43,098 nucleotides of DNA from a virus. Taxonomy: Duplodnaviria; Heunggongvirae; Uroviricota; Caudoviricetes. Position numbers and translations under genes: made by a program. Positions 7,678 through 38,607 of this stretch are shown piece by piece; position 1 is the first letter of the stretch; each line of letters starts with the position of its first letter. The stretch is taken from IMG/VR virus record IMGVR_UViG_2541047775_000007. The stretch is one strand, 5' to 3'. The notes under the pieces are model-generated. The model ran no database searches and was not told the DNA's origin. It saw only the letters and a program-made list of their open reading frames with translations.

Positions 7678-7692
7678 TTACCTTTCAGGTAA
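7678..7692. promoter_or_regulatory. operator-like palindrome TTACCTTTCAGGTAA (motif A)
   Basis: Perfect 5-bp inverted repeat with 5-bp spacer; one member of a family of at least 13 near-identical sites. Confidence 0.6.
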
Positions 7693-7729: not shown

Positions 7730-7749
7730 TACTGTATAAATATACAGTT
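7730..7749. promoter_or_regulatory. LexA (SOS) box TACTGTATAAATATACAGTT
   Basis: CTGT-N8-ACAG core at 7732-7747 with AT-rich spacer, 18/20 match to the E. coli LexA consensus; 20 bp upstream of the start codon at 7769. Confidence 0.75.
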
Positions 7750-7768: not shown

Positions 7769-8026
7769 ATGCAGCGGTATCACTATCCACTGGAAGACGG
7801 ATTTACCGAAAGGATTCACACGCCGGGAGGCGTCAGGTCACTGGTGGAGGGATCGCACTTGATGAAATTACTCCGGGATCTCGATAAGGATGGATTTAAT
7901 GTCGATGGCCCACTTGCCGAACTGACTGCACTGATTAACTACGTTACCAGCTCACAGATGTCTATGCGGGATCTGCAAACACATCTCGACTATTGTGCCG
8001 AACAATTACGAAAACAAACCCGGTAA
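7769..8026 (+). CDS. small antirepressor-like protein (85 aa), paralog of the C-terminal domain of the 9177..9833 antirepressor
   Basis: RBS ggag 8 nt before ATG; sequence aligns with the Ant C-terminus (shared GV..L.E.S.LM.LL..L..DG..V.G..AELT....Y......RD.QTH..Y); LexA box immediately upstream. Confidence 0.65.
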   Translation: MQRYHYPLEDGFTERIHTPGGVRSLVEGSHLMKLLRDLDKDGFNVDGPLAELTALINYVTSSQMSMRDLQTHLDYCAEQLRKQTR

Positions 8027-8905: not shown

Positions 8906-8942
8906 ATTTACATTGCACTCCTCTTGTGCCATAGTAATCGGG

Positions 8943-9018
8943 CACTGGCAAAATCCAGTGCCGGGATTGGTCTCCCGGATTACTAAGTGGCGCATACCAC
9001 GCCAGACGTGGTTTTTTT
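8943..9018 (+). promoter_or_regulatory. structured leader: three consecutive hairpins ending in an intrinsic terminator (ccacg-ccaga-cgtgg plus T7)
   Basis: Hairpins cactgg/ccagtg (8943-8960), ccggga/tcccgg (8961-8978), and terminator 8996-9018; no credible ORF. Confidence 0.45.
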
Positions 9019-9176
9019 ATGCGTATAGCACAGTCATGCCAGAATTATGGTGGGCTGAATGGGGGTCCGAAAGGACGCCGGTACCACTTAGGCCGGTAAG
9101 ACCAACTCCGTTCAGTTCACCACCATCTGATTGGTCTCAGCGGTGGTGATGTAATTCGCTAAGTGGAGACGCCATC

Positions 9177-9833
9177 ATGAACGCTCAACTCATCCCCGTA
9201 TTCAACGGCACTATATCTAACGAAACAGCCCTACTTTGTAATGCCCGCGATCTGCACACTTTTTTAGGTGTTAAAAAGGTGTTTGCAGCATGGATTACAA
9301 ATCGCATATCAGAATACGAATTCATTGAAAATCAAGACTATATTTTGCTTTCCAATTTGGGAAAGCAAACATCTGGTAGAGGCGGCCACAACCGCAAAGA
9401 GTACCACCTCACCCTTGATACAGCCAAAGAGCTGGCGATGGTCGAGCGTAACGAAAAAGGTCGCCAGGTGCGACGCTACTTCATTGAATGCGAGAAACGT
9501 TTAAGACAACAAGAAACAAAAGTGGAGAAGGTCTTGTCAGGCTTCATGCCCGCCATTATGGAGGCGATCAAGCTGGAAGACAAAAAAGAATACAGCGCCC
9601 CACTGAAGCCCGGCTACCGCAGCCTGATTCATTCTCCGTCTGGTGTTCTCGGACTGACGGAGAACTCACTGCTGATGAATCTGCTGAACCAGTTACAGGA
9701 AGACGGGCACGACGTATCGGGCGCGGCGGCGGAGCTGACCACCATGTTCTGCTACATCGTCGGTGTGAGCAAATGCCTGCGTGATATCCAGACGCACGCG
9801 GAGTACATCAACGACAAGGCAGGGTTCTTCTGA
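9177..9833 (+). CDS. phage antirepressor, AntA/AntB-type N-terminal domain plus C-terminal domain shared with the 7769..8026 protein (218 aa)
   Basis: N-terminus MNAQLIPVFNG...KVFAAWITNRISEYEFIENQDYIL...RYFIECEKRL resembles AntA/AntB antirepressor family; intrinsic terminator at 9843-9865 follows. Confidence 0.7.
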   Translation: MNAQLIPVFNGTISNETALLCNARDLHTFLGVKKVFAAWITNRISEYEFIENQDYILLSNLGKQTSGRGGHNRKEYHLTLDTAKELAMVERNEKGRQVRRYFIECEKRLRQQETKVEKVLSGFMPAIMEAIKLEDKKEYSAPLKPGYRSLIHSPSGVLGLTENSLLMNLLNQLQEDGHDVSGAAAELTTMFCYIVGVSKCLRDIQTHAEYINDKAGFF

Positions 9834-28206: not shown

Positions 28207-28283
28207 GTGGCATTAGCTCAGTTGGACAGAGCAACCGCCTTCTAAGCGGTTGGTCGCAGGTTCGAATCCTGCATGCCACGCCA
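28207..28283 (+). tRNA. tRNA-Arg (anticodon TCT), phage-encoded
   Basis: Manual cloverleaf: acceptor gtggcat/atgccac, D-arm gctc...gagc, anticodon stem accgc/gcggt with loop CTTCTAA, T-arm gcagg-ttcgaat-cctgc, discriminator G plus encoded CCA. Confidence 0.85.
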
Positions 28284-30419: not shown

Positions 30420-31012
30420 TGATTGCCATCCTGACGTTCTTTCAGTCTCTTCCTGGCTGCCGCTATGCGATCAGCAATTGTCACATTCACATTAACATCC
30501 AGGCGTTCTTTGAACGCGTTGACGTCGACGTGCTTACCAATCAGTTCGAGGTTCTTCACCTTGTCAGGCCATTTAATTTTTTTGAGGATTGTCTCTATCG
30601 AATCCTCGTCCATGTTCATGATGGTAGATGACAGATCAAAGCCACTAAGCGTAGTGCGCCAGATTTTCGGCCACTCGCGGATTGGCTTAAGGCTTCCATC
30701 GTCGTTGAGGATATCAATCACGTCCATCTGGTCGATCTCCACCAGGCGCATGAGAACGTAATCAGCACTGACGCGCATTCGTTTGTTGCGCTCCTCCATC
30801 AACTCGGCAATCCGTTTTTGAATGCGTTCATCGCGCATCATGACACTGGCTTTAACTGCCGCTGTATTTGGGGAGAATCCTGCGTTAATCGCAGCCTGAC
30901 TCTGGTTTTCAGGCGTTTTGATGTATGACTGGCAATAAGCCTCCTGCATTGCTGTGAGCGGCTTAAATTGCGTTGATTTGCGTTTATAGGTTTTAGGTTC
31001 AGCAGGCATCAT
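30416..31012 (-). CDS. terminase small subunit (about 198 aa; ORF-track start at 31090 probably over-extended)
   Basis: Overlaps terL start; basic N-terminus MMPAEPKTYKRK; motifs recalled from small terminase families. Confidence 0.6.
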   Translation of the reverse strand: MMPAEPKTYKRKSTQFKPLTAMQEAYCQSYIKTPENQSQAAINAGFSPNTAAVKASVMMRDERIQKRIAELMEERNKRMRVSADYVLMRLVEIDQMDVIDILNDDGSLKPIREWPKIWRTTLSGFDLSSTIMNMDEDSIETILKKIKWPDKVKNLELIGKHVDVNAFKERLDVNVNVTIADRIAAARKRLKERQDGNQ

Positions 31013-31054
31013 AACCACCCTGGTAATTGTTACCGTCGTGGTAATAGTAACATG

Positions 31055-34862: not shown

Positions 34863-35663
34863 TTACTTGATAAATCCTGCCGCCTTTCCCCGCCTGTATT
34901 CCTCCATCAGCCACTGCGCCGGTGTTATTCCCCCAAGGGTGGCGGCGTTAGGCATGCACCCGAAACTTCTCCCTGGTGGATGGTAAACGTCTCTCCCTGT
35001 GCCCGGAGGTGTACTCATGGGCTCTGGCTTTGCCTGTATGCTGATCACCGGATCGGGTATCTGCTGTCCGGAAGCCACCTTTTTCGCCCAATCATCGAGC
35101 AGCCTGCGCGCGTGTTTCTCAACCTCAATCTCGCTAAGCTGGCGCTGATACATTGCACGGCGGGTATCACATACGACCCAGTACATAACCGGATGTCGCC
35201 ACGGGAATCTTTCGGGACCACCAGGATATAAACTTTTTTCCTTGCTGTACCGGTGAAACTCCGCCATCACATCGTCAATGGTGACGCCAAGAACCATCTT
35301 GCTGTCTTTACACCACTTGATGAATTGCCCTGGCGACGGCCAGAACGGAGACTCACTGGCGCGGGCGTGGCGCATACCAGCAGAAACCTGTTCACGGGTT
35401 CGGATCCCCCCTTCGGCAAACGCAGCAATCCACTGCTGTTTTGCAGCAACTTCCTGCTCTGGCGTCTTCAGGTTGGTTACCACTGCCGCCGGAAACAGTT
35501 GTTTCAGCTGTTTGAAAAGGGCATCAACAAGCCTCTCTGCTGACATGTTCACCACATTGTCATTGTTGACGTACTGATGCTCATAACCTGACATGCGAGA
35601 AAGGGCTTCTCCGTCACGGTTTTGTATCGCGGTAAAAACGTTGTTCACAAGAAATCCTCCCAT
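34863..35663 (-). CDS. replication protein P-like (helicase loader), 266 aa
   Basis: Motif SPFWPSPGQFIKWC matches lambda P RPFLPSPGQFVAWC; position after the O-like gene. Confidence 0.75.
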   Translation of the reverse strand: MGGFLVNNVFTAIQNRDGEALSRMSGYEHQYVNNDNVVNMSAERLVDALFKQLKQLFPAAVVTNLKTPEQEVAAKQQWIAAFAEGGIRTREQVSAGMRHARASESPFWPSPGQFIKWCKDSKMVLGVTIDDVMAEFHRYSKEKSLYPGGPERFPWRHPVMYWVVCDTRRAMYQRQLSEIEVEKHARRLLDDWAKKVASGQQIPDPVISIQAKPEPMSTPPGTGRDVYHPPGRSFGCMPNAATLGGITPAQWLMEEYRRGKAAGFIK

Positions 35664-36460
35664 GCTTCAGGGCTGTTCCAGTGCGGAACGTTGTTATCAG
35701 GTAATGTTGATTGCTTCTGTCTGCTAATCTGCAGCCGCCTTGCCAGCTTCTGCTCCCACTGTGCCTGATGGTATGCCTTACCCTCAGCCATCCAGTAAAT
35801 TCTGAACTCTGCAAGTTCCTGTGCCGTTGGCAGACTGTCCAGGTAGATCCCCTGCAATGAGCTTTTCCGAAGAAAGTCATCTGATGGCTGCCATTGTTCA
35901 TGCATGACAAATTTGCCTAATTGCCCTGGCCCACCAGGAGGAACAAAGTTATTCATCACGGCGTTGTTTGCGTTGGGGTCATGATGCACAGAATCCCCGT
36001 TTTTTGTCCTGCTCTCCCTCTCTTGGTTAAATGACTGGTTATATGACTGGTTCTGGATCCCGTTTTTGGGATCATTCAACATCCCGTTTTTGGGATCATT
36101 CAACATCCCGTTTTTGGGTATATTCCCGCTTTCGGTAACATTACCGTTTTCGGGTTCATTACCCCCTTCCCGGTTGCCTTTAATGTTCCCTTTTTTGGTT
36201 ATATTAAGAGAGAAAACCCGTACTCTTTTCGTCGCCCCCTTTCTCTCTCCGGTATCTGAAATAAGCCCCATTTTCATGAGCGATATAAGCCCGGCCTGCA
36301 CGGTTTTTTTATTCAGGCAAGTGTCTTTAACGAGGCGTTCTATGCTGGGGTAGCAGAGGTTATATTCATCGGCTCTGTCAGCCATCGAGAGCAGTATGAG
36401 CTTTAATGATGAGCTACCTGGATCTGTCTCCCAGGCCCAATCTGTTGCATGTCTGCTCAT
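35645..36460 (-). CDS. replication initiator, lambda O-like (271 aa)
   Basis: N-terminal winged-helix region resembling the lambda O DNA-binding domain; repetitive central linker encoded by iterons; followed by the P-like gene. Confidence 0.65.
   Translation of the reverse strand: MSRHATDWAWETDPGSSSLKLILLSMADRADEYNLCYPSIERLVKDTCLNKKTVQAGLISLMKMGLISDTGERKGATKRVRVFSLNITKKGNIKGNREGGNEPENGNVTESGNIPKNGMLNDPKNGMLNDPKNGIQNQSYNQSFNQERESRTKNGDSVHHDPNANNAVMNNFVPPGGPGQLGKFVMHEQWQPSDDFLRKSSLQGIYLDSLPTAQELAEFRIYWMAEGKAYHQAQWEQKLARRLQISRQKQSTLPDNNVPHWNSPEAWEDFL
36057..36200. repeat. iteron array (candidate ori) inside the O-like gene: 24-bp unit atcccgtttttgggatcattcaac x2 exact, then degenerate copies
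   Basis: Exact tandem units at 36057-36080 and 36081-36104; further ccgttttcgg-like copies to about 36200. Confidence 0.65.
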
Positions 36461-36475
36461 GATTAATCTCCGCTA

Positions 36476-36676
36476 TCAGCCTGAGTGTTGTGGGGAGGAA
36501 TTAATCATGATCTGCTTAATCTCTGCCCTGATGCGACGGTTTGATTCCATGGTGCACTCAACACAGTGTCCGTTGTAAACCCAGCGTTCACTGTCATGTC
36601 CGTGCTTACATGTTTTTCCGGTGTAGTAGCGTTTAAGTCCGCGCTTTGCGGCATCAATACGTGTAATGATTTCCAT
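36476..36676 (-). CDS. small zinc-ribbon protein (66 aa)
   Basis: CKHGH...CVEC motif; ATG start preferred over the TTG-initiated 87-aa extension. Confidence 0.45.
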   Translation of the reverse strand: MEIITRIDAAKRGLKRYYTGKTCKHGHDSERWVYNGHCVECTMESNRRIRAEIKQIMINSSPQHSG

Positions 36677-36756
36677 GGTAAGCCCTGTTATTGGTATTGG
36701 GATTACGGTTATTTTGTGCTGACACAAAAAAAAGATCAACCATATTTGGTTTTTTA

Positions 36757-36771
36757 TTACCTTTGAGGTAC
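36757..36771. promoter_or_regulatory. operator-like site TTACCTTTGAGGTAC (motif A, one mismatch)
   Basis: Palindrome next to the motif B palindrome aaccatatttggtt (36738-36751). Confidence 0.5.
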
Positions 36772-36777
36772 GAATAG

Positions 36778-36805
36778 ATATGAAAAGACCGCCGGATGGC
36801 GGTCT
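36778..36805 (-). terminator. hairpin (agaccgcc-ggat-ggcggtct) downstream of the Cro-like gene, tR1-like position
   Basis: 8-bp GC stem; weak T-tract on the minus strand. Confidence 0.4.
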
Positions 36806-36826
36806 ACAGAGGGTTGTGGCTGGATA

Positions 36827-37057
36827 TCATGAGTAGAAGAAGTATGCCAGTTCTGCTTTTGAGCGCAGCCATTGTCTTGATTTACAGGCTTTAAAAAGCC
36901 CATTCATCAATACCTTACCTGGCATTTTGCGCTTACCTGTTAAGTGAGTCTGGATATAGTGACTCGTCGTTCCGGCTTCCTGTGCGAAGGCTTCACGCTC
37001 ATCCGGAGTAAGTGCAAGCCAGTGCTTTTTGAAATCGAAATGTCCGTTATCGCTCAT
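36827..37057 (-). CDS. Cro/YdaS-like small DNA-binding regulator (76 aa)
   Basis: Divergent from the repressor across an operator cluster; size and HTH-like segment. Confidence 0.55.
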   Translation of the reverse strand: MSDNGHFDFKKHWLALTPDEREAFAQEAGTTSHYIQTHLTGKRKMPGKVLMNGLFKACKSRQWLRSKAELAYFFYS

Positions 37058-37093
37058 AGCTATTGCCTGATATTTATTTCAGATAATAAATAT

Positions 37094-37156
37094 TCACCTA
37101 TAAGGTAACAAAAATCAAGGATAGTTACCCATGAGGTGCATTTACCTGTTGGGTAA
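37094..37156. promoter_or_regulatory. immunity-region operator cluster: TCACCTATAAGGTAA (37094-37108), TTACCCATGAGGTGC (37125-37139), TTACCTGTTGGGTAA (37142-37156)
   Basis: Three motif A sites between divergent Cro-like and repressor genes (OR1-3-like arrangement). Confidence 0.65.
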
Positions 37157-37211
37157 TATTGCTTTAAATTGAATCATCTTCTGATTCAGATATGAGGCGA
37201 TTTTCCAGAAA

Positions 37212-37796
37212 ATGAAAAGTATCCAGGACGTCCGCAGGCAAAATCTCAACGACTTGATCGACCGTGAATTCAATGGTGTTCAGACGCGGATGGCTGAAAA
37301 ACTTGGAACTCAGGCAAATCTGGTAAACCGCTGGGCTCTTGGCAAGAAGGTTATCGGCGACCAGGTTGCGCGAAAAATTGAAGCTGCCGCCAATAAACCC
37401 CGTAACTGGCTTGATATCGATCGCTCGCTTTCTCAGGAAGGTTTTCAGCCTGTCGGACCAAGCGACATTGGTCAACTGGCGGCTCACAACCTGAAACGCT
37501 GGATGAGCGAAAGCCGCGACCTTTCAACGCAGGGAAAACTTCACCGCGCATCCGGCGTCGCCCAGGTAACAATCAGTCGCCTGTTAAACAATGAGGTCAG
37601 CGTTTCCATTTCCACCCTGGAGAATGTTGCATCCGCATTCGGGCGTCACGGCTATGAATTACTGATTCACCCGCACGACCCTGCGACCATCAACTATGAC
37701 CGCTCGCGCTACGCATTGTTACCCGAAACCGAGAAAGCAAAGATCGAAAGTTACATTGAATTTGTCATCAACCAGAACGAAAAAAACAAACAATAA
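37212..37796 (+). CDS. phage repressor with two tandem HTH (XRE-type) domains and no recognisable LexA-like autocleavage domain (194 aa)
   Basis: Two segments matching the Q..LA...G.....VSR HTH pattern; no S24 peptidase motif seen by eye; divergent from Cro-like gene. Confidence 0.65.
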   Translation: MKSIQDVRRQNLNDLIDREFNGVQTRMAEKLGTQANLVNRWALGKKVIGDQVARKIEAAANKPRNWLDIDRSLSQEGFQPVGPSDIGQLAAHNLKRWMSESRDLSTQGKLHRASGVAQVTISRLLNNEVSVSISTLENVASAFGRHGYELLIHPHDPATINYDRSRYALLPETEKAKIESYIEFVINQNEKNKQ

Positions 37797-37816
37797 AATC
37801 ATACTCTTCAGTAAGT

Positions 37817-37841
37817 AAGCCGCCTTCTGGCGGCTTTTTTA
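37817..37841 (+). terminator. rho-independent terminator (aagccgcc-ttct-ggcggctt plus T6) after the repressor gene
   Basis: 8-bp GC stem and TTTTTT. Confidence 0.75.
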
Positions 37842-37853
37842 TTGCCTATTTGA

Positions 37854-37930
37854 TTACCTAACGGGTAATTTTTTTAACTCATATCTATTGACATCAAACC
37901 AGATACGCATAATTATTACCTCAACGGTAA
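37854..37930 (+). promoter_or_regulatory. PL-like promoter region: operator TTACCTAACGGGTAA (37854-37868), TTGACA (37888-37893), operator TTACCTCAACGGTAA (37916-37930)
   Basis: Consensus -35 flanked by two motif A palindromes upstream of the plus-strand early operon. Confidence 0.55.
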
Positions 37931-37949
37931 CAGACCGAGGTAACAAGTT

Positions 37950-38102
37950 ATGCAGTGGAAAATCATCAACGGTTGGTACTGCGTTACTGCATGCGGATTC
38001 ATGAGCTGGAAGTTCCGCACCTTACAGGAAGGCATTAAGTGGGCTTTCGTCAGCAAAGAAGCTCGCGATGTGGCCAACGATAACGAGATATGGGAGGGCT
38101 GA
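37950..38102 (+). CDS. small protein (50 aa), first gene of the plus-strand early operon
   Basis: RBS gaggt; below ORF-track size cut-off. Confidence 0.35.
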   Translation: MQWKIINGWYCVTACGFMSWKFRTLQEGIKWAFVSKEARDVANDNEIWEG

Positions 38103-38104
38103 TA

Positions 38105-38404
38105 ATGAACGTTAATCAGCAGAAAAATCTTCAAAAAATCATGCTGGCATTCGACAAGGACTACCGCCTGTCAGAACAGCTATATGACCGACAAGTTGAA
38201 CTGATTGAGAGTATCCGGCTTCATCAACTGGCATCAACTTTCGACGTTGTAACAGTTAAAGGCGTTCGCCAGGAAGTACTGGAGGCCGCTAAAGACAGTC
38301 CAGAGTTCGAAGAACTGATGGATTCCTACCGGCGCGAGGCAATGGCAATTATCGCCCGCTGGGATCTGGCTGATCAGCTTGATGGGCAGAGGGACGCGGC
38401 ATGA
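38105..38404 (+). CDS. hypothetical protein (99 aa)
   Basis: RBS ggaggg before ATG at 38105. Confidence 0.5.
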   Translation: MNVNQQKNLQKIMLAFDKDYRLSEQLYDRQVELIESIRLHQLASTFDVVTVKGVRQEVLEAAKDSPEFEELMDSYRREAMAIIARWDLADQLDGQRDAA

Positions 38405-38607
38405 AACCAACACTCCTCTCATTGCTGCGAGGTGGAAAACACAGCATCCGAGATATGGCAAAGATTCTTGGTATCTCAAGATCGAAGGTTTCTTGGTTCA
38501 TCGCTGAGCTTGAACGTCGCAAATGGGTAGAGGTAACCAGGAGCGCAATATATTTCCACGATGGAACCAGATCCAACAAGCAGAACGAATACAAGGTTAA
38601 GTTATGA
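38401..38607 (+). CDS. small winged-helix/HTH DNA-binding protein (68 aa)
   Basis: Segment SIRDMAKILGISRSKVSWFIAELERR resembles a winged HTH. Confidence 0.5.
   Translation: MKPTLLSLLRGGKHSIRDMAKILGISRSKVSWFIAELERRKWVEVTRSAIYFHDGTRSNKQNEYKVKL

Follow-up and report, generated by a model that had tools for sequence, protein, structure and literature searches.

The immunity region of a phiV10-like prophage as a probable lysis-lysogeny switch of the SPC32H Rep/Ant type

The region described here, positions 36,476 to 37,796 of a 43,098-nucleotide stretch of DNA (the window), is the immunity region of a phiV10-like prophage of the genus Uetakevirus. It is very probably the lysis-lysogeny switch of a phiV10/epsilon15-type prophage that works like the Rep/Ant system of Salmonella phage SPC32H, in which a repressor without a self-cleavage domain is displaced by a small antirepressor. 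A reading of the same DNA made from the letters alone (hereafter the sequence-only reading) had listed features that were all found where it placed them, and had proposed antirepressor-based induction. That proposal, although already known, is supported by three lines of evidence: the full-length homology of the repressor to SPC32H Rep, which has been crystallised with its antirepressor (PDB 5D50), the presence in the window of an orthologous Ant behind a perfect LexA box, and the shutdown of lytic genes upon overexpression of a 99.5%-identical repressor from phage vB_EcoP_ZX5 (ZX5).

The immunity region shares 98.3% DNA identity with gp40-gp42 of phiV10 (DQ126339) and is carried by 540 of 5426 complete E. 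coli genomes, where its copies are labelled only 'helix-turn-helix protein' or 'hypothetical protein'. It is already known: it is annotated in phiV10, the SPC32H mechanism has been solved both genetically and structurally, and the ZX5 repressor has been tested. The analysis carries little weight as a discovery and is of practical use in annotation, as names can now be given to Rep, Ant, the Cro-like protein, the operators and the LexA box in about 10% of complete E. coli genomes. Comparisons were made across 12 related loci with Rep proteins 42-99% identical to that of the window, which fall into a phiV10/Tyrion clade of eight members and an SPC32H clade. The coordinates of the features are collected in Table 1.

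Table 1. Features of the immunity region and of the ant locus, in window coordinates
Feature	Position	Strand	Remarks
Perfect Rep-type palindrome	7678..7692		tailspike-ant intergenic region
LexA box CTGTATAAATATACAG, perfect	7732..7747		22 bp upstream of the ant start codon
ant, 85-aa small antirepressor	7769..8026	+	PDB 5D50_E, E 3.5e-46
66-aa Cys/His protein (phiV10 gp42)	36476..36676	-	first gene of the replication operon
Promoter-like block TTGATC-N17-CAAAAT, conserved	36739..36711	-	downstream of the 36757-36771 site
Operator-like site TTACCTTTGAGGTAC, 1 mismatch	36757..36771		just past the Cro-like terminator
Intrinsic terminator after the Cro-like gene	36786..36805	-	annotated in phiV10; hairpin conserved in relatives
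Cro-like gene, 76 aa (phiV10 gp41)	36827..37057	-	predicted five-helix HTH protein
CTGA-N8-TCAG element	37067..37082		in the Cro-like leader; left arm overlaps the likely RBS at its AGG
Candidate Cro-like promoter TTGATT-N18-AATATT	37083..37118	-	consensus match
Operator O1, TCACCTATAAGGTAA, 1 mismatch	37094..37108		between -35 and -10 of the candidate Cro-like promoter
Operator O2, TTACCCATGAGGTGC, 2 mismatches	37125..37139		position kept in 12 of 12 related loci
Candidate rep promoter TTTACC-N17/18-TTAAAT/TAAATT	37141..37170	+	consensus match
Operator O3, TTACCTGTTGGGTAA, perfect palindrome	37142..37156		in the spacer of the candidate rep promoter
rep, 194-aa prophage repressor	37212..37796	+	ORF list; PDB, Pfam and family comparison
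Intrinsic terminator after rep	37817..37836	+	annotated in phiV10
Leftward-operon control region (PL/OL-like)	37854..37930	+	operators flank promoter

The repressor

Rep is 99.5% identical to gp40 of phiV10 and to ORF21 of ZX5, and 42% identical overall to SPC32H Rep, whose structure (PDB 5D50_A) matches residues 1-190 with an E-value of 3.9e-42; the C-terminal half in addition matches the solved structure of Rep(92-198), 5D4Z, with an E-value of 3.9e-20. With domain names taken from PMC9986798, the protein consists of an N-terminal HTH DNA-binding domain (DBD, residues ~1-70) followed by a variable linker, a middle HTH-like dimerisation domain (MDD, ~89-155) and a C-terminal tail for tetramerisation and Ant binding (CAD, ~158-190). 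Pfam identifies a YdaS-type HTH at 21-61 and HTH_3 with two matched stretches, the best at 106-147. The designation of the repressor as a tandem-HTH protein in the sequence-only reading thus holds at the level of sequence. For SPC32H Rep, however, the second HTH-like unit has been described as the middle dimerisation domain, and the C-terminal tail, which is p53-like, as the tetramerisation and Ant-binding domain (PMC9986798). The aromatic residues F187 and F190 of the SPC32H tetramer interface align with Y181 and the invariant F184 of Rep. The N-terminus, MKSI, is invariant in all homologues of the family alignment, and an upstream start at the ATG at 37192 was rejected as out of frame.

Rep gave no Pfam match to Peptidase_S24 up to E=1, in agreement with the earlier remark that no cleavage domain is visible. 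It therefore falls outside the self-cleaving class of LexA and lambda CI, which is defined by an S24 domain with a Ser-Lys dyad, and shows instead the combination typical of SPC32H, namely Rep homology over DBD, MDD and CAD without a peptidase domain. When ZX5 ORF21 was overexpressed, the transcripts of endolysin and holin fell by more than 99.9% and free phage disappeared.

Operators, promoters and terminators

The three operators that the sequence-only reading had placed between rep and the Cro-like gene (its motif A) were recovered, with the centre of O2 lying 17 bp from that of O3 and 31 bp from that of O1, and the positions of all three are conserved in the 12 related loci. The window contains 11 perfect copies of TTACC-N5-GGTAA compared to 0.04 expected, with at most one in any of 500 shuffles, and every copy is intergenic and found at the same position in relatives. 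Sites with two mismatches number 40 in the window compared to 12 expected, a single such site not being significant. The half-sites are invariant across both clades. Present, over-represented and conserved, the palindromes are proposed here from sequence alone as candidate binding sites of Rep.

A promoter scan returned four matches compared to 2.8 expected from shuffles, which is about the background frequency, and the candidate promoters are proposed solely from cross-clade conservation. The Cro-like promoter may also be read as TTGATT-N17-GAATAT (by eye) or alternatively as TTGTTA-N17-TATTAT; its TTGATT box is conserved in nine of 12 aligned loci, with TTGCTT in the other three, and the conserved block reads AAAAATCAA, or AAAAAGCAA in three of the loci. 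The two clades share both hexamers of the candidate rep promoter. Past the rep terminator, perfect operators at 37854-37868 and 37916-37930, with centres 62 bp apart, flank the sequence TTGACA-N17-AATTAT (37888-37916), and the same arrangement is found in phiV10, Tyrion, SPC32H and BUCT711.

The stem of the terminator downstream of the Cro-like gene (36805..36786, minus strand) is composed of eight pairs, six of them G-C, and is followed by a T-rich tail. This is the hairpin that had been called 'tR1-like'; it is present as a terminator, whereas the name describes position only. It is followed by the conserved operator-like site and the promoter-like block listed in Table 1. An N-like antiterminator was not seen. 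A 9-bp A/T inverted repeat in the Cro-like leader, ATATTTATT-N6-AATAAATAT (37070-37093), was considered as a hairpin and discarded, the changes in relatives not being compensatory.

The Cys/His ORF and the replication operon

The replication operon encodes a zinc protein, a DnaT-like initiator and a P-like loader. In the ORF list the first of these has 87 aa and starts at a TTG at 36739; its homologues, however, are all 64-69 aa long and begin with MEIITR, which places the real start at the ATG at 36676. The ligand pattern is C23-x3-H27 ... C38-x2-C41, in which C23, H27 and C38 are invariant and C41 nearly so. The protein belongs to PHROG 1081, of unknown function (E 8e-42), and a search with its AF2 model (pLDDT 78) yielded no fold neighbour. 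The small zinc ORF of the sequence-only reading is therefore present, but as a protein of 66 rather than 87 aa and without a structural neighbour, and its 'cII-like' label is positional only.

The Cro-like protein, the leader element and alternative readings

The Cro-like gene opens the rightward operon and is divergent from rep across the three operators in all 12 loci, which together with a small HTH product is the hallmark of a Cro-type gene. The AF2 model is a five-helix HTH fold (pLDDT 87) whose top Foldseek matches are the N-domain of the 434 repressor, YdaS and 434 Cro, with weak statistics (TM 0.55-0.64, E 0.5-2), and PHROG 35, 'transcriptional repressor', is matched with an E-value of 8.7e-13. 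The name given in the sequence-only reading is thus backed by gene position and a confident model. It is unlikely that the 76-aa protein is another small Xre-type regulator such as a CII-like lysogeny activator or an excisionase-like factor. The protein has no sequence match in Pfam, NCBIfam or PDB, all its homologues are named 'hypothetical protein', the Foldseek E-values are poor, and its recognition helix, TSHYIQTHL, differs from the ANLVNRWA of Rep, so that binding to the same operators is not evident. Set against this are the position of the gene opposite rep in every locus, the phage repressor and Cro domains among the best model matches, the PHROG label and the invariance of its HTH in both clades, like that of the operator half-sites. 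For the 194-aa protein the corresponding doubt, that it is an antitoxin-type or general Xre regulator and not the prophage master repressor, is extremely improbable: it draws on NCBIfam matches to HigA, HipB and RstR, all weak and below cut-offs, and on phage BP9, where a homologue is annotated as an antidote protein ('VapI antidote'), and it is countered by the full-length homology to SPC32H Rep, the ZX5 overexpression data and the divergent Cro-like gene and operators beside rep, while no toxin gene adjoining rep was found.

The CTGA-N8-TCAG element overlaps the probable ribosome-binding site of the Cro-like gene, as first noted from the sequence. If it were a weak LexA box, LexA would act on the Cro-like leader and the SOS response directly on the rightward promoter, and it does have a CTG-N10-CAG frame in which the spacer is entirely A/T, follows closely on the candidate -10 and carries arms that are invariant in all eight members of the phiV10/Tyrion clade around a variable centre. 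The entire leader is conserved in this clade, however, and not the arms alone, and SPC32H, BUCT711 and two other loci lack the element. By an approximate LexA matrix it scores 0.5 bits, compared to 12.7-26.6 bits for the known boxes from which the matrix was made, and its heterology-like index is 20.3, compared to at most 11.8 for those boxes. Its rank in the window is 82, and a shuffled window holds about 49 sites that score at least as well. The element thus does not reach, against the CTGT-N8-ACAG consensus, the scores of known boxes, and on the matrix score and the absence from the SPC32H clade the LexA reading was rejected as very improbable.

The antirepressor and its LexA box

The product of ant is the orthologue of SPC32H Ant, to which it is about 86% identical, and ant is syntenic with SPC32H_020, being divergent from the tailspike gene. 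It lies 29 kb from the immunity region within the same window, which accordingly holds the small antirepressor of ~86 aa that characterises the SPC32H type. With the approximate matrix the LexA box upstream of ant scores 28 bits and ranks first in the window, by far the best LexA-like site, and SPC32H, phiV10 and Tyrion also have this box at the ant promoter, its geometry in the window matching that in SPC32H. In SPC32H, Ant is LexA-controlled (PMC7380047), and Rep binds palindromic DNA as a tetramer that Ant breaks (PMC9638917). A microcin that damages DNA induced prophages of the phiV10 species 21- to 47-fold. In ZX5, the antirepressor put to the test was a Bro-N protein and not the small Ant.

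The window also contains a second, larger antirepressor, an AntA-domain protein at 9177-9833. Upstream of it Rfam identifies C4 at 9043-9127 (61 bits, gathering score 45) and isrK at 8942-9018 (68 bits, gathering score 50); a C4-type antisense RNA upstream of an ant gene is the arrangement of the P1/P7 immI-type module.

A model of the switch

In the lysogen, Rep would occupy the 15-bp palindromes TTACC-N5-GGTAA. O1 would lie inside the Cro-like promoter and O3 inside the rep promoter, where Rep may regulate its own gene. O2 lies between them, ~44 bp ahead of the inferred start point of rep transcription, and from there could assist transcription of rep. Beyond the rep terminator, the leftward early promoter would be flanked by two further sites. 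Lacking a peptidase domain, Rep should not be cleaved by RecA. Upon DNA damage, self-cleavage of LexA would instead free the ant promoter at its LexA box, and Ant is predicted to bind the C-terminal domains of Rep, take the tetramer apart and so remove Rep from the DNA. The derepressed rightward promoter would then express the Cro-like protein, which would probably keep rep off after induction. The Cro-like gene appears to be isolated by its terminator, and the replication operon probably starts from its own operator-linked promoter.

A possible wider Rep regulon

The palindrome occurs at nearly every transcription-unit boundary of the prophage. Copies precede the terminase gene and the genes of the portal region, the tailspike/ant pair and the second antirepressor, as well as the replication operon and the genes that come next. 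Fourteen sites have at most one mismatch; all of them are intergenic, and their synteny extends to phages in which Rep identity is down to 42%. Several pairs are exactly 62 bp apart and bracket a promoter, and this spacing, like the 31 bp between O1 and O2, would fit a tetramer with two far-apart DNA-binding pairs. It is possible, if somewhat doubtful, that Rep, unlike lambda CI, acts at more than two operator regions and directly silences the whole prophage, with one tetramer bridging two sites per promoter. Ant varies far less across the genus than Rep does, and both clades have the operator half-sites in common, from which cross-induction and possibly cross-immunity are predicted among Uetakevirus prophages.

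Comparison with known systems

SPC32H belongs to the same genus and has the same gene order (Kim and Ryu 2013; Kim et al. 2016; PDB 5D4Z, 5D50). Like the window it encodes a Rep of ~195 aa with DBD, MDD and CAD and no S24 domain, and an Ant of ~85 aa whose gene is divergent from that of the tailspike and starts 22 bp after a LexA box; it also has three TTACC-N5-GGTAA sites in the interval that separates rep from the Cro-like gene, and paired sites around the leftward promoter. The two differ in that the Rep proteins are only 42% identical, compared to ~86% for Ant, that the SPC32H clade lacks the CTGA-N8-TCAG leader element, that the leftward control region has three sites in SPC32H and two in the window, and that the window, unlike SPC32H, carries the second, larger antirepressor with its C4/isrK RNA module. 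In 2016 Kim and co-workers are said to have found that Ant binds the C-terminal domain of the repressor and does not compete for the DNA-binding surface, and in their 2013 abstract the SPC32H authors reportedly set Ant apart in structure from Tum and the other antirepressors of siphoviruses and myoviruses. In the phiV10 record, 'two helix-turn-helix motifs' are already mentioned and the two terminators annotated; phiV10 differs from the window by a few base changes in the operator spacers and by a Bro-N antirepressor with a truncated Ant-like C-terminus where the window has the AntA-type gene.

The region is reminiscent of lambda cI-OR-cro in the three-part operator that separates divergently transcribed repressor and Cro-type genes, in the order of Cro-type gene, terminator, small gene and O/P-type replication genes, and in a second operator set at a leftward promoter just past the repressor gene. 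Unlike in lambda, Rep lacks an S24 autocleavage domain and by analogy with SPC32H would be a tetramer with a p53-like tail (PMC9986798), an N-type antiterminator is not seen in the window, the palindrome recurs at many other intergenic sites, and induction would proceed, again by analogy, through a LexA-controlled antirepressor. The same logic, an uncleavable repressor that is inactivated by a small SOS-induced protein, is found with the LexA-controlled antirepressors of coliphage 186 (Tum) and of Gifsy prophages (PMC7380047).

Identity of the immunity region

The window is a phiV10/epsilon15-like prophage of the genus Uetakevirus, and its immunity system is of an already known kind at an already annotated locus. 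phiV10 aligns with the entire stretch 36400-38000 at 98.3% identity, about a dozen further E. coli phages cover 79-100% of it at 96-98% identity, and the same 1.5 kb is carried by 540 of 5426 complete E. coli genomes (at least 95% identity). The three ORFs named in the sequence-only reading, encoding the repressor Rep, a divergent Cro-like protein and a small Cys/His protein, are real. The phiV10 record labels gp40 'putative transcriptional repressor, two helix-turn-helix motifs', lists gp41 and gp42 as hypothetical proteins and annotates a rho-independent terminator downstream of each of gp40 and gp41. Overall, that reading is confirmed in what it observed and supported in its interpretation, with corrections to the second HTH, the tR1 label and a CTGA element.

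Features of the immunity region and of the antirepressor loci (motif A, TTACC-N5-GGTAA; single coordinates are those of motif A copies)
Feature	Position	Strand	Remarks
rep, 194 aa	37212-37796	+	ORF listing; phiV10 gp40
Cro-like gene, 76 aa	36827-37057	-	ORF listing; phiV10 gp41
Small Cys/His (zinc) ORF	ends 36476	-	ORF listing; phiV10 gp42
O1	37094-37108		between rep and Cro-like gene; one mismatch to motif A
O2	37125-37139		between rep and Cro-like gene; two mismatches
O3	37142-37156		between rep and Cro-like gene; perfect
Operator pair	37854-37868, 37916-37930		perfect; just past rep terminator; centres 62 bp apart
Terminator after rep	37817..37836	+	own scan: 8 pairs, 6 G-C; annotated in phiV10
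Terminator after Cro-like gene	stem 36805..36786	-	own scan: 8 pairs, 6 G-C; annotated in phiV10
Operator-like site	36757-36771		past Cro-like terminator; one mismatch
ant, 85 aa	7769-8026	+	SPC32H Ant 5D50_E, E 3.5e-46, ~86% identity
LexA box CTGTATAAATATACAG	7732-7747		perfect; 22 bp before ant start codon
Second antirepressor, 218 aa	9177-9833	+	N-terminal AntA domain, PF08346, E 6e-26
isrK and C4 antisense-RNA matches (Rfam)	8942-9018, 9043-9127		just upstream of second antirepressor; both above gathering score
Motif A, tailspike/ant region	7678
Motif A, upstream of second antirepressor	8798, 8891
Motif A, just after second antirepressor	9907
Motif A, upstream of portal-region genes	27870
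Motif A pair, just before likely terminase start	31012, 31030
Motif A pair, after replication genes	34749, 34811		62 bp apart
Motif A, after Cro-like terminator	36757
Motif A, two immunity operator regions	37094, 37142, 37854, 37916

The repressor

A Pfam search of Rep returns two HTH_3 stretches (the better at 106-147), a YdaS-type HTH at residues 21-61 and no Peptidase_S24, which agrees with the claim that the protein lacks a self-cleavage domain. Residues 1-190 align with Rep of SPC32H, a Salmonella phage with a characterised Rep/Ant switch (5D50_A, the full-length protein crystallised with antirepressor; E 3.9e-42), and the structure of Rep(92-198) alone is also matched (5D4Z, E 3.9e-20). 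SPC32H Rep comprises an N-terminal DNA-binding domain, a middle dimerisation domain and a C-terminal domain of p53-like fold for tetramerisation and Ant binding, and its tetramer interface includes Phe187 and Phe190 (PMC9986798). The tetramer binds palindromic DNA and is broken by tetrameric Ant (PMC9638917). In an alignment of 11 members of the family, conservation is highest in the N-terminal domain and the C-terminal tail; SPC32H F190 corresponds to the invariant F184 of the window Rep and F187 to Y181. At sequence level 'tandem HTH' is therefore correct, but the second unit corresponds to the dimerisation module of the solved homologue and not to a demonstrated second DNA reader. ORF21 of phage ZX5 is 99.5% identical to the window Rep, and its overexpression removes free phage and lowers endolysin and holin transcripts by more than 99.9% (PMC9782041).

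Operators across the prophage

The three predicted motif A sites between rep and the Cro-like gene are present, with centre spacings of 31 bp (O1-O2) and 17 bp (O2-O3), and keep their positions in all 11 relatives compared (42-99% identity to the window Rep). A TTGATT box on the Cro-like strand is position-conserved in the compared loci (TTGCTT in three), as is TTTACC...TTAAAT on the rep strand. On the most economical reading O1 would lie between the -35 and -10 of a candidate rightward promoter, O3 within the spacer of a candidate rep promoter and O2 about 44 bp upstream of where rep transcription is inferred to begin; the promoter scan is near background, and both promoters are consensus matches backed by conservation only. 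The pair past the rep terminator brackets a strong TTGACA-N17-AATTAT match for the leftward early operon, a layout likewise conserved in relatives. This operon also holds a 68-aa winged-helix (MarR/HTH_24-like) ORF (38401-38607, +), of which no counterpart was seen in the phiV10 annotation.

Perfect motif A occurs 11 times in the window against 0.04 expected, and all 14 copies (11 perfect, three with one mismatch) are intergenic, at positions syntenic in phiV10, Tyrion and SPC32H. Judging by this distribution, Rep or the Cro-like protein may act at most prophage promoters. The leftward early promoter is bracketed by a pair exactly 62 bp apart, as is the promoter that follows the replication genes, and a single Rep tetramer perhaps bridges two sites.

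Two palindromes (31007-31044) directly precede the likely terminase small-subunit start, ATG 31009 (-), which agrees with the start in Tyrion and SPC32H. Both the longer window ORF (TTG 31090) and the annotated phiV10 start would place them inside the gene, so these starts are probably too far upstream. The terminase and portal regions are separated by a tRNA-Arg (anticodon TCT; 28207-28283, +), SPC32H and ZX5 also encode a tRNA, and a full-length Rfam match to the Hfq-binding sRNA STnc490 (2778-2901, -; 146 bits, gathering score 56) lies near the lysis end.

The Cro-like gene

The 76-aa protein has no match in Pfam, NCBIfam or PDB sequence searches and matches PHROG 35, labelled 'transcriptional repressor'. 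Its AlphaFold model (23 homologues) is confident (pLDDT 87) with five helices, and the closest PDB folds are the 434 repressor N-domain, YdaS and 434 Cro (TM-scores 0.55-0.64, weak E-values of 0.5-2). With the conserved gene position, these neighbours make the name 'Cro-like' reasonable but unproven.

The downstream hairpin is a real terminator, 'tR1-like' in position only. Since an operator-like site and a conserved promoter-like block follow it, and no N-type antiterminator was seen, Rep probably controls a separate promoter for the replication operon. At 36020-36140, within the gene for the DnaT-like replication initiator (35645-36460), CATCCCGTTTTTGGGATCATTCAA recurs with variants as direct repeats that resemble origin iterons such as those in lambda O.

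The CTGA-N8-TCAG element is at 37067-37082 and overlaps the probable ribosome-binding site, as described, and is conserved, like the entire leader, in eight loci of the phiV10/Tyrion clade and absent from the four of the SPC32H clade. As a LexA box it is rejected: on an approximate matrix built from published E. coli boxes it scores 0.5 bits (rank 82 in the window), and about 49 sites per shuffled window score equally.

Antirepressors and induction

The small antirepressor gene ant is divergent from the tailspike gene, as in SPC32H. Its LexA box aligns base for base with those of SPC32H, phiV10 and Tyrion and scores 28 bits on the same matrix, far above all other sites in the window. In Salmonella phages of this kind LexA self-cleavage permits synthesis of Ant, which inactivates the repressor by protein-protein contact (review, PMC7380047), and a DNA-damaging microcin induced prophages of the phiV10 species 21- to 47-fold (2026 preprint). 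Together these support the predicted antirepressor-based induction, which is already known. Identity to the SPC32H counterpart is about 86% for Ant yet only 42% for Rep, and the operator half-sites are common to the whole genus; Uetakevirus prophages are accordingly predicted to cross-induce and possibly to show cross-immunity.

The second, larger antirepressor is homologous to small Ant in its C-terminal residues 137-213 (5D50_E, E 4.7e-14), with 43% identity to the Ant encoded in the window. Tyrion gp20 shares this Ant-like C-terminus, which in phiV10 gp23 (Bro-N) is reduced to a truncated piece. Rep-type palindromes lie further upstream of the antisense-RNA matches, and the layout of antisense RNA upstream of an antirepressor is that of the P1/P7 immI module.
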